From positions 1 to 51,275 of the forward strand of contig JAIMJQ010000007.1 of assembly GCA_020693165.1 (NCBI GenBank): a DNA stretch of 51,275 nt. The letters run 5' to 3'. The DNA is from Xanthomonas sp. GTDB taxonomy: Bacteria; Pseudomonadota; Gammaproteobacteria; Xanthomonadales; SZUA-5. The notes beneath the pieces were generated by a model that was not told where the DNA came from, did not search any database, and was given only the letters and a program-made list of their open reading frames with translations. Of this stretch, positions 3,481 through 26,183 are shown in pieces (position 1 is the first letter of the stretch; the number at the start of each line of letters is the position of its first letter). Made by a program: the position numbers and the translations under genes.

Positions 3481-3566
3481 CGAACAACAACGGACAGTCA
3501 AGAATCGAACAACAACGGACGAACAACGAACAACAACGGACAGTGAAGAATCAGAATTTTCCTACA
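3481..3566 (+). repeat. Tandem array (CGAACAACAACGGAC-type units, 25-nt unit CGAACAACAACGGACAGTSAAGAAT x2) plus the GAATCAGAATTTTCCTACA module
   Basis: Read directly: 3481-3505 and 3528-3551 are near-identical, with partial units in between. The 19-mer at 3548-3566 repeats 761-779. Confidence 0.8.
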
Positions 3567-3622: not shown

Positions 3623-4651
3623 ATGGCTTACGCCCGCTCGATCCTCGTTCCGCCCGGCTTGCCCGGCACCTACCATTGCGTGTCGCGCTGTGTGCGCCGC
3701 GCGTGGCTGTGTGGCGAGGATCGCGGCAGCGGCCGTTCCTACGAGCACAGACGGCAATGGGTCGAAGACAGGATCGGCGAACTCACCGGGATCTTCGCGG
3801 TCGCCGTCTGGGGGTACGCGGTGATGAGCAACCATTTGCATGTGGTGGTGCAGGTGATCCCGCAAGCGGCCGCCGCTTGGTCGACTGAGGACGTGGCCGC
3901 GAGATGGTGTCGCCTGTATCCGCGTCGGGATCAAGACGCCAGCATGCGGGCCGAGGCGCTGGCCGGAAACGAAGGACGGATCAAAGAGCTGCGAGGGCGC
4001 TTGTGCGATTTGTCCTGGTTCATGCGCTGCCTGGCCGAACCGATCGCTCGACGCGCAAACCGCGAGGACGGTTGCAAGGGGCATTTCTGGGAGGCGCGCT
4101 TCAAGTGCCAGGCTCTGCTTGACGAGATGGCAGTGTTGTCGGCGATGACCTACGTCGACCTCAATCCGGTTCGAGCCAGGATCTGCGACAGCCTCGAGGA
4201 GTCTGCGCACACGTCAGCCAGGGTTCGCCTCGACGTGATCGAGAAGGATCGACAGCAGATCGATCAGCCCTTGGCCCCGGTCTTGGGCTTGCGGGGATTC
4301 GGTGTGCTGACGCTCAAGCAGCGCGACTACCTGGAACTCGTCGACTACACGGGTCGCCAGATTCACCCTGGCAAGCGCGGCGCCATTTCCGGCCCGCCGC
4401 CGGCTGCGCTGGCGCGGATCGGTTACACGAAGGATCAGTGGCAACGCCAGGTACTTGCGGTCGGCGCGGGATACTTCCGGGCGATCGGTGCTGCTGACGT
4501 TCTGATCGAGAAAGCGCAGGAAATCGATCAGGCGTGGCTTCGGGGCAACGGCATCGCACGGCAGCTCAAGCTCCGGAGCCGCATGCACGGAACCGCATGG
4601 AATAGAATACTCGACTGTCCGGAGCCCGAAGACCCGATTGTCCGGAGCTGA
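3623..4651 (+). CDS. REP-associated tyrosine transposase (RAYT; IS200/IS605-like Y1 HUH transposase, COG1943-type)
   Basis: 342 aa. HUH motif in AVMSNHLHVVVQV and catalytic-Tyr motif MTYVDLNPVRARI. ATG at 3623. Confidence 0.85.
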   Translation: MAYARSILVPPGLPGTYHCVSRCVRRAWLCGEDRGSGRSYEHRRQWVEDRIGELTGIFAVAVWGYAVMSNHLHVVVQVIPQAAAAWSTEDVAARWCRLYPRRDQDASMRAEALAGNEGRIKELRGRLCDLSWFMRCLAEPIARRANREDGCKGHFWEARFKCQALLDEMAVLSAMTYVDLNPVRARICDSLEESAHTSARVRLDVIEKDRQQIDQPLAPVLGLRGFGVLTLKQRDYLELVDYTGRQIHPGKRGAISGPPPAALARIGYTKDQWQRQVLAVGAGYFRAIGAADVLIEKAQEIDQAWLRGNGIARQLKLRSRMHGTAWNRILDCPEPEDPIVRS

Positions 4652-4796
4652 AGACCAAGAGCCGAAGACCAAGAGCCGAAGACCTACTTCGAAGACCTGC
4701 TTCAAGATGTTCGATGCGCGAATACGCGCAACGACAGGGCGACCGGGACTCCTGCAGGGCACGCTTTTCCGACACCACGCATGGCACTTTTCTGAC
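4627..4796 (+). repeat. Tandem array (GAAGACCAAGAGCC x2 plus GAAGACC partials), conserved TGTTCG core (4707-4752) and GGGCACGCTTTTCCGAC module
   Basis: The array overlaps the RAYT stop codon (4649-4651). The core ATGTTCGATGCGCGAATACGCGCAACGACAGGGCGACCGGGACTCC aligns with 9022-9072 and with the reverse complement of 14369-14426. Confidence 0.8.
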
Positions 4797-8797: not shown

Positions 8798-8800
8798 ATC

Positions 8801-8818
8801 GGGACTCTCACCGAACAT
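8801..8818 (+). repeat. Isolated terminal segment of the TGTTCG core (GGGACTCTCACCGAACAT)
   Basis: Identical to the reverse complement of 14370-14387. Lies 3 nt after the TrmB-like stop codon. Confidence 0.7.
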
Positions 8819-10363: not shown

Positions 10364-10503
10364 GGAACCTCCAGGGGGGTGCAGTAGCAGCTCAGTATAG
10401 CGGGATGTGTTGGGCTGCTCTGAATGGTTGGTCCGGGTGGGGGTGTGGGTTGTCGGGCTTCTGGGCTGGGGCGGGCGGCAACCTCGCGAGAACCTGGATC
10501 TTG

Positions 10504-10567
10504 GTGGGTCCAGACTTGTCTGGACCTACCAGAAGGAGCAGCAGCGTCCAGACAAGTCTGGACCCAC
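10504..10567. repeat. REPIN-like doublet: two perfect 22-nt inverted copies of a self-palindromic REP
   Basis: GTGGGTCCAGACTTGTCTGGAC (10504-10525) and GTCCAGACAAGTCTGGACCCAC (10546-10567) are exact reverse complements, separated by 20 nt. A related single copy is at 22626-22648. Confidence 0.85.
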
Positions 10568-10619
10568 AAAAGCCGCTGCGTGGCCGATCTCGTCGACCGG
10601 CAACCCGAAACCAAAGAAC

Positions 10620-14368: not shown

Positions 14369-14426
14369 CATGTTCGGTGAGAGTCCCGGTCGCCCCTGAC
14401 GGTGCGCCTATTCGCGCATCGAACAG
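14369..14426 (-). repeat. Conserved TGTTCG core, most complete copy (58 nt, inverted termini TGTTCGGTGAG / TGCGCATCGAACA-type)
   Basis: The minus strand reads CTGTTCGATGCGCGAATAGGCGCACCGTCAGGGGCGACCGGGACTCTCACCGAACATG. Confidence 0.8.
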
Positions 14427-14432
14427 TGGAGC

Positions 14433-14512
14433 GCACGAGGGCACGAGGGCACGAGGGCACGCAAAGGAAGATTCGGAGCAAGCTTCAGCTCATTCGTGCC
14501 CTCGTGCCCTCG
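14433..14512. repeat. Hairpin with tandem-octamer arms: (GCACGAGG)x3 ... (CCTCGTGC)x2
   Basis: Units at 14433-14456, complementary units at 14495-14512, about 38-nt spacer. Immediately adjacent to the core at 14369-14426. Confidence 0.8.
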
Positions 14513-14542: not shown

Positions 14543-14576
14543 GGCATGTTCGGTGAGGGTGTCTGGCGCACATGCC
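14543..14576 (+). repeat. Partial core-like hairpin GGCATGTTCGGTGAGGGTGTCTGGCGCACATGCC
   Basis: Shares ATGTTCGGTGAG with the core start. GGCATGT and ACATGCC form a stem. Confidence 0.55.
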
Positions 14577-15014: not shown

Positions 15015-15102
15015 AGGACGCCGTCGCCGACTGCCGAGTTGAGCAGGTAACAGGACGGGCGCTGCGCTGGTGGCAGCGGGCTTCGCCCGCAATGCTGCTT
15101 GA
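15011..15102 (+). repeat. REP-like structured segment beginning with GTAG that contains the yerC-like stop codon
   Basis: GTAGAGGACGCC...GCGCTGCGCTGGTGGCAGCGGGCTTCGCCCGCAATGCTGCT has nested short stems (CGCTGC/GCAGCG, GCGGGC/GCCCGC). The TAG at 15012-15014 lies inside GTAG. Confidence 0.55.
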
Positions 15103-15207
15103 CCAGCAACCAGCAACCAGCAACCAACATCCATCAACCAACAACCAACAACCAACAACCAACAACCAACATCCAACAACCGACAACCGACAACCGACAA
15201 CCATCAA
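15103..15207 (+). repeat. CA-rich microsatellite-like array: (CAGCAA/CAACCA/CAACAA)n then (CAACCGA)x3
   Basis: About 105 nt of 6- and 7-nt units ending 10 nt before the hisG ATG (15217). No Shine-Dalgarno sequence in between. Confidence 0.85.
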
Positions 15208-15216
15208 TCGCCCCCA

Positions 15217-18505: not shown

Positions 18506-18569
18506 GAGCGACGTGTACGCCGCGACCATCGCACGACAGGACCCCCGGTCGCGACGTACACGTCGCTCC
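18502..18569 (+). repeat. REP hairpin with 23-nt arms starting at GTAG, overlapping the hisC stop codon
   Basis: GGAGCGACGTGTACGCCGCGACC (18505-18527) pairs with GGTCGCGACGTACACGTCGCTCC (18547-18569), one mismatch and a 19-nt loop. A related single copy is at 34811-34832. Confidence 0.85.
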
Positions 18570-18599
18570 AACACCAACAACTGACACCATAACCACCCC

Positions 18600-19661: not shown

Positions 19662-20443
19662 GTACCGTCGTCGTCGATTCCGGCGTTGCCAACGTCGGCT
19701 CGGTGGTTGCGGCGCTGGAGCGGTTGCAGGCGAAAGTCATCATCAGTCGCGATTGGGAGGTGATCCGTCAGGCTGCTCGTGTCTTGCTCCCCGGCGTTGG
19801 CGCCGCGGCGGCGGCCATGCGTGAACTCGATCGGCTGGGGCTTGTCGAGCGGCTGCCGACGCTGACGCAACCGGTGCTCGGCGTGTGCCTGGGGATGCAG
19901 TTGATGTTCGAGGGGTCGGAGGAGGGCGGGGAGCTCGAAGCCGGGACTCGGGACTCGGGACTCGGGACTCGGGACTCGGCTGTTCAGAGTGAGAATGCAT
20001 CCCGGCTCGTGCGTGTGAATCTGCCGGATCATCGCGGCAGACTCCCCACTGGCCACCAACCCGAGTCCCGAGTCCCGAGTCCCGAGTCCCGGCGGTTGGC
20101 CGTCCCCTGCCTCGGTATCCTCCCCGGCCACGTTCGCCGCCTTCCCGAATCCCCCGGCGTACGCATCCCGCACATGGGCTGGAACGCGCTGATCCCGCGT
20201 CGACCGCATGCGCTGGTCGCCGGCCTTGGCGAGCGCGACTACGCCTATTTCGTGCACAGCTTTGGCGCCGCCGAGAGCGAGCTGACGCTGATGGCTTGCG
20301 AGCACGGCAGCACCTTCTCGGCGGTCGTCGCGCGTGGCAATTTCATGGGTGCGCAGTTCCATCCGGAGCGCTCGGCTGCTGTCGGGGCGCGCCTGCTCGA
20401 CAACTTCCTCAATCTCGATCTGGAGGCGCTCGGGCGATGTTGA
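19658..20443 (+). CDS. hisH: imidazole glycerol phosphate synthase, glutaminase subunit, with an in-frame insertion of about 57 aa
   Basis: 261 aa against about 200 aa typical. GVCLGMQL (catalytic Cys) and QFHPERS are present. Residues about 92-148 are encoded by a palindromic repeat element. GTG start overlapping the hisB stop. Confidence 0.85.
19943..20090. repeat. Intragenic palindromic element: (GGGACTC)x5, core, (GAGTCCC)x4
   Basis: Five perfect heptamers at 19943-19977 and four complementary heptamers at 20063-20090. The 85-nt centre starts CTGTTCAGAGTGAGAATGCATCCCGG, related to the TGTTCG core start. Confidence 0.85.
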
Positions 20444-26022: not shown

Positions 26023-26183
26023 GAATCAGGAAAAAGGAAAAGTCAGGAAAAAGGAAAACGGGGAAGCGGTGTGCGCCAGGTTCCGGGGTAGCTCGCATCG
26101 AACGCTGTGAAGGGCAGAACGGCAGAGGATGCTCGGGCAACCGCTGTTGCCTTCCCCCTTTTCCATTTTCCCTTTTTCCGGCT
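26023..26183. repeat. Palindromic element filling the whole guaA-tadA intergenic region: GGAAAA-rich tandem arms around a divergent core
   Basis: The left arm GAATCAGGAAAAAGGAAAAGTCAGGAAAAAGGAAAACGGGGAAGCGG (26023-26069) is imperfectly complementary to CCGCTGTTGCCTTCCCCCTTTTCCATTTTCCCTTTTTCCGGCTTC (26141-26185). The centre contains CGCATCGAAC, as in the core. Confidence 0.7.

Follow-up and report, generated by a model that had tools for sequence, protein, structure and literature searches.

The histidine biosynthesis operon of a Xanthomonas sp. assembly (GCA_020693165.1, contig JAIMJQ010000007.1) includes a hisH gene whose coding sequence holds, in frame, a pair of inverted heptamer arrays, and this insert, its host gene, and its counterparts in related genomes are the subject of the analysis described here. 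The window, meaning the whole 51,275-nt stretch of DNA that was analysed, carries the operon in the order hisG-D-C-B-H-A-F-IE, with hisH in mid-operon beside hisA and hisF (hisBHAF). The product is the glutaminase subunit of imidazole glycerol phosphate synthase (TIGR01855 / PF00117), and the whole protein scores 194.4 bits against the NCBIfam equivalog TIGR01855, where 105.4 bits is the cut-off. The match falls in two stretches, the reported one covering residues 148-252 from profile position 93. The sequence match to solved HisH structures in the Protein Data Bank (PDB) is lost at residue 92 and regained at 149, which bears out the description in the initial annotation of this DNA of conserved HisH sequence that breaks off and then resumes. 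That annotation had also called the protein over-long at 261 aa, and HisH outside the clade of close relatives is indeed only about 196-213 aa in length. The extra segment, at 183 nt a multiple of 3, has no in-frame stop, whereas each of the other two forward frames has one, and it is translated into a loop with many R, G, S, L and P residues. The Cys-His-Glu triad (C77, H235, E237) is complete, with the insert between Cys77 and His235/Glu237, as had been claimed along with the stop-free frame and the mid-operon position.

The heptamer hairpin structure inside hisH is real. Both the array count and Tandem Repeats Finder (TRF), which reports the two arrays as 100% matches, confirm the five copies of GGGACTC, the 85-nt centre, and the four copies of GAGTCCC that had been annotated (Table 1). 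The doubled heptamer unit has 7 matches in 51 kb, all within the hisH insert, against an expectation of 0.02. The inverted arms pair perfectly over 34 nt (19940-19973 with 20060-20093), and the pair spans codons 96-145 of the 261-codon gene, with the 3' arm encoding ESRVPSPES. The long potential hairpin first proposed from the repeats is matched by very stable predicted folds of the insert region, of -126 kcal/mol as RNA (z = -8.9 relative to shuffles) and -67.6 kcal/mol as DNA (z = -8.2). RNA and DNA folds alike pair 20020-20026 with 20035-20041 as the inner stem of a small hairpin in the centre, and in every fold the flanks GGAGGAGGGCG and GCCTC.CCATCC pair with each other. The arms also carry a putative G-quadruplex motif, G3N4 x4, on both strands. 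The GC content and composition of the insert are like those of its surroundings, with no foreign signature. An Rfam scan of the window returned a single tRNA and nothing at the hisH insert, and no terminator or promoter signal was found at the hairpin. A twin assembly, GCA_020692745.1, matches the window over 6.8 kb with a single differing base, at 20027, the first loop base of the inner hairpin, which is G in the window and T in the twin (Asp or Tyr). As a candidate seed for the insert, a pre-existing hairpin in the native loop was rejected, since 78 insert-free hisH loops gave a mean z of 0.02 relative to codon-position shuffles.

Table 1. Positions of hisH, its catalytic codons, and the parts of the insert in the window
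Feature	Position	Strand	Basis or remark
hisH coding sequence (CDS), GTG start, 261 aa	19658..20443	+	Open reading frame (ORF) list, TIGR01855, PDB HisH matches, operon context
Cys77 codon, catalytic nucleophile, GVCLGMQ motif	19886..19888	+	Invariant alignment column; codon read from sequence
Whole extra segment relative to insert-free HisH, codons 90-150, 183 nt	19925..20107	+	Alignments with orthologues and solved structures
5' arm (GGGACTC)x5	19943..19977	+	Motif scan; G3N4 quadruplex motif on sense strand
Unique 85-nt centre	19978..20062	+	blastn-short against window and all fetched loci: self and twin assembly only
Inner hairpin of centre, GAATCTGCCG / CGGCAGACTC	20017..20044	+	Inverted repeat; inner stem in RNA and DNA folds
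3' arm (GAGTCCC)x4, reverse complement of 5' arm	20063..20090	+	G3N4 quadruplex motif on antisense strand
His235-Pro236-Glu237 codons, His and Glu of glutaminase triad	20360..20368	+	Invariant columns; codons read from sequence

The extra residues begin about 6 residues past the invariant Glu89, which we take to correspond to the glutamine-binding Glu96 of Thermotoga HisH. In an AlphaFold2 (AF2) model of the window HisH built from an 85-sequence alignment, most of the core has a predicted local distance difference test score (pLDDT) above 90, and residues ~91-148 lie at 40-62 and are mostly coil, which bears on the question raised in the initial annotation of whether residues 92-148 form a surface loop. 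The best Foldseek match of the model is 4gud, the V. cholerae HisH, with a target-normalised template modeling score (TM-score) of 0.94, and a class I glutamine amidotransferase fold and a his-operon context (hisBHAF) are both present. Outside the clade this loop has 3-12 residues and is longest in Aeromonas, and such natural length variation in other bacteria indicates that the site tolerates length changes. The model supports an insert site that behaves as a tolerant loop, predicted to be a disordered coil and probably at the protein surface.

Codon-position differences separate the host gene from its insert. In the hisH core, differences at positions 1/2/3 number 8/5/35 and 15/11/33 between the relatives L082 and L085 (L-numbers are DNA loci of relatives and P-numbers are their HisH proteins), 6/7/23 and 2/3/20 between the window and L082, and 13/2/36 in a further count between orthologues that again falls mostly on third positions. 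The core is under purifying selection. The counts for the insert are flat between orthologues (9/7/10, 6/11/7, 8/9/11, and 15/15/11), and the inserted peptide is not under purifying selection at the amino-acid level. With a third-position bias in the core and a flat, low-confidence insert, the gene looks functional, its product being a putative glutaminase in complex with HisF, and the inserted peptide looks unselected.

The initial annotation had left room for a strain-specific insert, a prospect that ends with the orthologue alignment, where relatives have inserts at the same loop. The closest public HisH proteins come from uncultured Rhodanobacteraceae/Lysobacterales (some annotated as Xanthomonadales) and are 207-279 aa long, and all of this length variation falls in this one loop. 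DNA was fetched for eleven of these relatives from NCBI, JGI, ENA, and Logan, and the inserts were read from it. Insert-bearing relatives share an architecture of G-rich array, centre, and reverse-complement array, with array copy number varying among them and at least four unit types. The window is of type T1, (GGGACTC)5 / (GAGTCCC)4 around 85 nt. Type T2 has GGGACCC in its 5' arm, GGGTCCC in its 3' arm, and a centre of about 90 nt (L082 and L085, (GGGACCC)4 / (GGGTCCC)3-4), and type T3 has (GGGAATC)n followed by GATTCCC or CATTCCC around a centre of about 30 nt (L083, L086, L088, and L092). Type T4 has (GGGGCTG)3 and (CAGCCCC)3 around a variable centre of about 60-85 nt (L087 and L089). The peptides of the four types are unrelated to one another, and within the clade the inserts are analogous but mostly unalignable. 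Reduced forms include L093 with the right arm only, P0040 with a centre and almost no arms, and P0006 with arms and no centre, and within the same clade hisH occurs without any insert in L091 and L157. A scan of metagenome contigs for the codon pattern of FEGSEEG yielded, among the matches listed, one close relative, again with an insert-free allele. A scan of genome contigs with the HisH alignment listed relatives at 36-46% identity, none of those listed with an insert, and these served as controls. Unrelated taxa did not yield the homologous segment of about 57 aa that the initial annotation had named as counter-evidence to a repeat insertion; the loop of 3-12 residues is what they have at this position.

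Two of these relatives have additional peculiarities in hisH. In L090, from a neighbouring lineage (also in P0044, P0046, and P0052), a second in-frame insertion follows MGWNALIP (L090 10430-10600, ~60 extra residues) and consists of (GAGGGCAC)x4 and then a palindrome, judged by eye to resemble repetitive extragenic palindromic (REP) elements, that encodes '...PLPSRERGWGEGA...'. The longest hisH insert, of 81 aa, is found in L092 (343-650), where a tandem duplication takes in the centre, the C-rich arm, and ~35 nt of native hisH codons from further downstream, with these duplicated codons out of their usual frame; on a contig of just 1.7 kb, misassembly is possible.

A class of repeats with this build has been described in Xanthomonas. 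Rehm et al. (2015, PLoS One, PMC4692102) reported 183-186 arrays of GGGNATC-type heptamers per genome, including 70-75 inverted pairs whose orientation is always convergent. Of those arrays 89-93% are intergenic, as a rule no more than 50 nt from where an ORF ends, and 7-11% overlap ORFs; their positions are conserved between Xanthomonas species while copy numbers vary (PMC4692102). The hisH insert conforms to the (GGGANTN)n tandem heptamer pattern and lacks the exact GGGAATC unit that the published screen also required (PMC4692102). Its second array lies on the opposite strand 85 nt downstream, in the convergent orientation of that class, but the pair departs from the typical location in lying in the middle of a gene. 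The close clade has 46 heptamer arrays in the 228 kb counted, and 25 of these have an inverted partner; more distant relatives have 12 in 498 kb, just 1 of them partnered in this way. Units in the clade extend beyond the GGG type to GGTTGTT, CGCAAAGGA, GAGGGCAC, AGTGAGT, and GGAAAAAG. The other clade pairs that were compared with gene tables all lie in intergenic gaps, including other his junctions (hisC-hisB in L083, hisB-hisH in L090, and hisF-hisI in L087). Elsewhere in public data, a peptide search met long translated (GGGACTC)n solely in short hypothetical ORFs, the majority of them from Xanthomonas translucens, and in no protein with a known domain. The hisH insert best fits the convergent heptamer-microsatellite class of Xanthomonadales, a known class in which a translated position in mid-gene is unusual.

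Taken together, these observations make it probable that the insert is a convergent inverted heptamer-microsatellite pair around a unique centre, belonging to a clade-enriched class and tolerated in the surface-loop codons of hisH. It would be a passenger of the gene, with surviving variants being those that keep the frame and avoid stops, because a change of one 7-nt unit in one arm would shift translation onto a stop in the centre. The units of the four types differ from one another by one or two substitutions, and in every type the 3' arm bears the matching complementary change. When the consensus units were aligned by hand, pairing held in 97% of cells, and 4 of the 7 positions had changed on both sides with pairing kept. 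This covariation score was reached by 0 of 500 shuffles, and structures slid by 1-3 columns gave no compensatory changes. Such complementarity may be kept mainly by intramolecular template switching at replication (quasipalindrome correction), with selection for a stable his mRNA hairpin as a possible additional factor. Homologous recombination in the conserved parts of hisH on either side could have carried the insert types from one lineage to another.

The distribution of types among close genomes is discordant with their backgrounds. The window (T1), L082 (T2), and L083 (T3) differ by about 5-12% of DNA across the operon, and stretches of 60 nt as far as the very edge of the insert have 1-7 differences each, and yet their inserts are unalignable. 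At the same time, the T2 insert of L082 is homologous to that of L085 (about 17% background difference, 15-16% in the insert), and the T3 insert of L083 to that of L088 (about 18% and about 20%). P0003 and P0007 have 90% identity in the core and 91% in the insert, although the peptide is unconstrained. For this discordance to arise, recombination tracts would have to be very narrow, unless a polymorphism has long persisted between flanks that recombine freely or the insert is replaced site-specifically. The raised divergence next to the insert that is expected for an old balanced polymorphism was not seen. Chimeric metagenome assembly is a caveat for the discordance; the alleles nonetheless recur in independent samples. 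A second regularity is polarity: among 17 inverted pairs examined in the clade on both strands, the G-rich arm was 5' in 15, 2 were ties, and none was reversed, in line with the always convergent orientation of the Xanthomonas pairs, and a hairpin alone does not predict this order.

Several of these points weigh against a tolerated pair kept by template switching and spread by recombination. Type T3 keeps CATTCCC opposite GGGAATC, a C-C mismatch every 7 nt in several lineages, and the persistence of this mismatch indicates that arm homogenisation is inefficient in GGGAATC-type alleles. Insert DNA diverges by 15-21%, below the 30-40% of synonymous sites, and the C-rich arm with its flank is identical over 47 nt between L083 and L088. 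Nucleotide-level constraint or recent exchange fits these two observations better than pure neutrality, and they give room to a regulatory RNA. Recombination would need breakpoints within ~60 nt on both sides, and the flanks bear no trace of a donor. That all orthologues are in frame is partly ascertainment, as all of them were obtained via full-length protein matches. A tolerated pair also leaves the origin of such pairs and their G-first polarity unexplained.

Three unalignable types in genomes only about 9% apart across the operon, each with orthologous copies in more distant ones, together with the fixed polarity, would point to a directional process. It is conceivable, if rather unlikely, that the loop in hisH is home to a cassette with multiple alleles, all of them self-complementary microsatellite hairpins, which is replaced or exchanged precisely at its borders by an undescribed directional DNA process. 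One candidate for such a process is a break to whose two ends repeats are added before they are joined, and another is a dedicated activity for recombination or templating; the alternative is ordinary slippage plus drift.

That the hairpin is instead a selected RNA element of the his operon, for instance one at which the mRNA is processed or stabilised, or one that pauses translation and so adjusts how much HisH is made relative to the genes upstream, with the loop as a by-product, is an explanation to which we likewise give a low probability. The stability of the predicted fold (z = -8.9), the compensatory unit changes between types, the slower change of insert DNA relative to synonymous sites with one arm perfectly conserved, and the comparable pairs at other his junctions of L083, L090, and L087 would all fit such an element. 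Template switching alone can yield the same covariation, however, and the GGGAATC alleles tolerate periodic mismatches. The centres are unalignable between types, there is no terminator or promoter signal, and the insert is lost or fragmentary in L091, L093, P0006, P0012, and P0016, where the operon is otherwise normal.

The initial annotation had read the insert as a copy of a mobile palindromic repeat, a REP or miniature inverted-repeat transposable element (MITE), of the same family as the intergenic elements of the window. A REP/REPIN or MITE copy that transposed into hisH and landed in frame by chance now appears unlikely. REP-like palindromes are common in these genomes, some of them at the centre of intergenic pairs (e.g. 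L085 16812-17032 and L087 4065-4260), and the second hisH insert of L090, P0044, P0046, and P0052 pairs (GAGGGCAC)4 with a palindrome that looks REP-like by eye. Neither the unit pair nor the 85-nt centre, however, has a second copy or a significant match in the 51-kb window or in ~1 Mb of fetched loci. The proposed likeness of the centre to a 'TGTTCG core' is at chance level, since 5% of shuffled centres, and 11% of 85-mers taken at random from genomic sequence, attain an equal gapped similarity to ATGTTCGGTGAG. No target-site duplication was seen, CTCGAA and GGTTGG outside the 34-nt arms not being direct repeats as judged by eye; the composition of the insert is not foreign; and each clade locus has its own unit, unlike a transposing family. 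What stands of the annotation as a whole is an in-frame hairpin repeat at a tolerant loop of an otherwise intact hisH, and what falls is its membership in a REP/MITE family and its restriction to one strain.

A contingency locus, in which slippage by 7 nt toggles hisH through frameshifts as in phase variation, is very improbable. Some features would suit such a locus: the 7-nt intragenic unit is not divisible by 3, the repeats are perfect in both arrays (5 and 4 copies), both shifted frames meet a stop in the centre, and copy number differs among relatives. Against this, no frameshifted allele was found among the DNA loci examined, in a sampling biased towards intact proteins, the arrays are identical in two independent assemblies, and silencing an essential biosynthetic enzyme has no evident benefit. 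When frameshifted fragments were sought with the first 89 residues of HisH, just 5 distant ones came up, and even the known relatives were missed.

Still less credible is amino-acid-level selection for a functional HisH loop or domain specific to the lineage. The insert does occupy the same position in many clade members, but its differences show no codon-position bias, the peptides of the four types are unrelated, model confidence is low with mostly coil, some lineages have lost it, and the peptide is no more than what a heptamer repeat yields when read through its three phases. An assembly or sequencing artefact can practically be dismissed: repeats and hairpins are error-prone in metagenome assemblies and L092 has its odd internal duplication on a 1.7-kb contig, but the separate assembly GCA_020692745.1 has the same structure with one single-nucleotide polymorphism (SNP) in 6.8 kb, contrary to the assembly error that had been raised at first as a possible refutation, and analogous inserts occur in NCBI, JGI, ENA, and Logan contigs.

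Arrays and palindromes elsewhere in the window and in the fetched loci deserve mention in their own right. A 111-nt array of ~15 ACCAACA-type heptamers (window 15102-15212) ends 6 nt before the hisG start, where no obvious Shine-Dalgarno sequence was seen, and C/A-rich arrays precede hisG, hisB, or hisI in several relatives (L082 5328, L083 5233, L085 5396, L086 5340, L088 5379, and L087 4220). At other sites the ACCAACA-type unit forms the C-rich arm in GGTTGTT/AACAACC pairs. Between HMGL-like and Trp-repressor-like genes (window 14429-14512) there is an inverted octamer pair, (GAGGGCAC)x4 ... (TCGTGCCC)x2, and the GAGGGCAC unit is present at the equivalent site in L083 (4440-4547) and L091 (4183-4260) as well as inside hisH of L090. 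The gap between guaA and a dCMP-deaminase-like gene is filled exactly by an inverted pair of GGAAAAAG-type and CTTTTCC-type units (window 26026-26179), and the orthologous gap in L085, L086, and L087 has other units, AGTGAGT or GGTGAGT with ACTCACT, which repeats the pattern seen in hisH of the same site with different units. In L085 and L086 a REP-like palindrome occupies the centre of the pair in this gap.

Other repeated elements of the window are of different build. An element of ~58 nt, ATGTTCGGTGAGAGTCCCGG...GCGCATCGAACAG, holds a single GGGACTC and is not significantly related to the hisH insert; its sites are 14369-14427, 4707-4765 (inverted), 8800-8818, and 14546-14560 in the window, about 4410-4440 in L083, and 4290-4350 in L091, and the one at 14369 adjoins the point where the HMGL-like gene, which is on the minus strand, probably starts. 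A REP-like palindrome headed by GTAGGAGCGACGTGTACG is found in the hisC-hisB gap (window 18507-18570), and a doublet, GTGGGTCCAGACTTGTCTGGACC...GTCCAGACAAGTCTGGACCCAC, flanked by decayed GGTTGT/AACC arrays, between Peptidase_S51 and PAS-GGDEF-EAL genes (window 10490-10570). Complex tandem arrays with periods of 23-25 nt and 14 nt (window 3481-3552 and 4605-4707) have a common motif, ACTGTCCGG(AGCC), which is similar to a GCGCAGTCCGG core that relatives have in the centres of their GGGAATC- and GGGGCTG-type inserts in hisH. Long poly-G runs in the contigs of metagenome-assembled genomes (MAGs), at L085 11533-11558 and L086 4351-4400 and 4770-4798, are probably assembly or polishing artefacts, and one of them is close to where a hisA call that is too long (293 aa) has its 3' end.

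If the insert is indeed a tolerated heptamer-microsatellite pair, then an enzyme accommodates ~60 microsatellite-derived residues starting ~6 residues past an invariant Glu, and the coding sequence acts as a neutral reporter in which the frame filters repeat variants and the flanks serve as a clock. The hisH loop would be a natural system for studying the origin, arm complementarity, and turnover of inverted microsatellite arrays. Covariation of this kind could stem from template switching and not from selection on RNA structure, which matters for the discovery of RNAs by covariation. The repeat class has had no accepted function or origin since its description, and type discordance and polarity are testable puzzles that would gain in interest if they were found to reflect a specific DNA process.

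Among known systems, the Xanthomonas repeats of Rehm et al. come closest in build, with a 7-nt unit starting in GGG, arrays of ~4-5 units, convergent pairs, occurrence in Xanthomonadales, conserved positions with varying copy number, and a quadruplex sequence motif. The hisH pair differs from them in being translated in the middle of an essential gene and in having the unit GGGACTC, with other units in its orthologues, and the clade also contains units of the same build without the quadruplex motif (GGTTGTT, CGCAAAGGA, and AGTGAGT). Heptanucleotides of filamentous cyanobacteria and the TAACTGA repeat of Beggiatoaceae also form genome-wide heptamer arrays, mostly intergenic according to the accounts cited (PMC4692102; PMC4679880), and as far as those accounts extend they involve other phyla and units and mainly direct arrays, not inverted intragenic pairs. 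REP/REPIN elements mobilised by RAYT are like the insert in that short palindromes are abundant in these genomes, some nested between array pairs, and unlike it in having near-identical copies with a conserved head motif, where the hisH arms are tandem units. Template switching is known to create or repair hairpin stems and to homogenise inverted arms, coding DNA included (PMC8794818, PMC8604942, PMC7202029). This quasipalindrome mutation accounts for multi-base compensatory change in close inverted arms, but it is a mechanism and not an element family, and its action at hisH is suggested by the pattern only. In terms of function, the nearest analogue is the Rickettsia palindromic elements (RPEs), palindromes of ~150 nt that lie in frame in housekeeping genes and, by the cited account, are apparently compatible with protein fold and function (PMC10969869). 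Like an RPE, the hisH insert is hairpin-capable and in frame and does not disrupt its housekeeping gene. RPEs have homologous copies with a conserved peptide at many loci, whereas the hisH insert is unique to its locus, is built from microsatellites, and exists as several unrelated alleles, and by this comparison it is an analogue of the RPEs and not one of their members.

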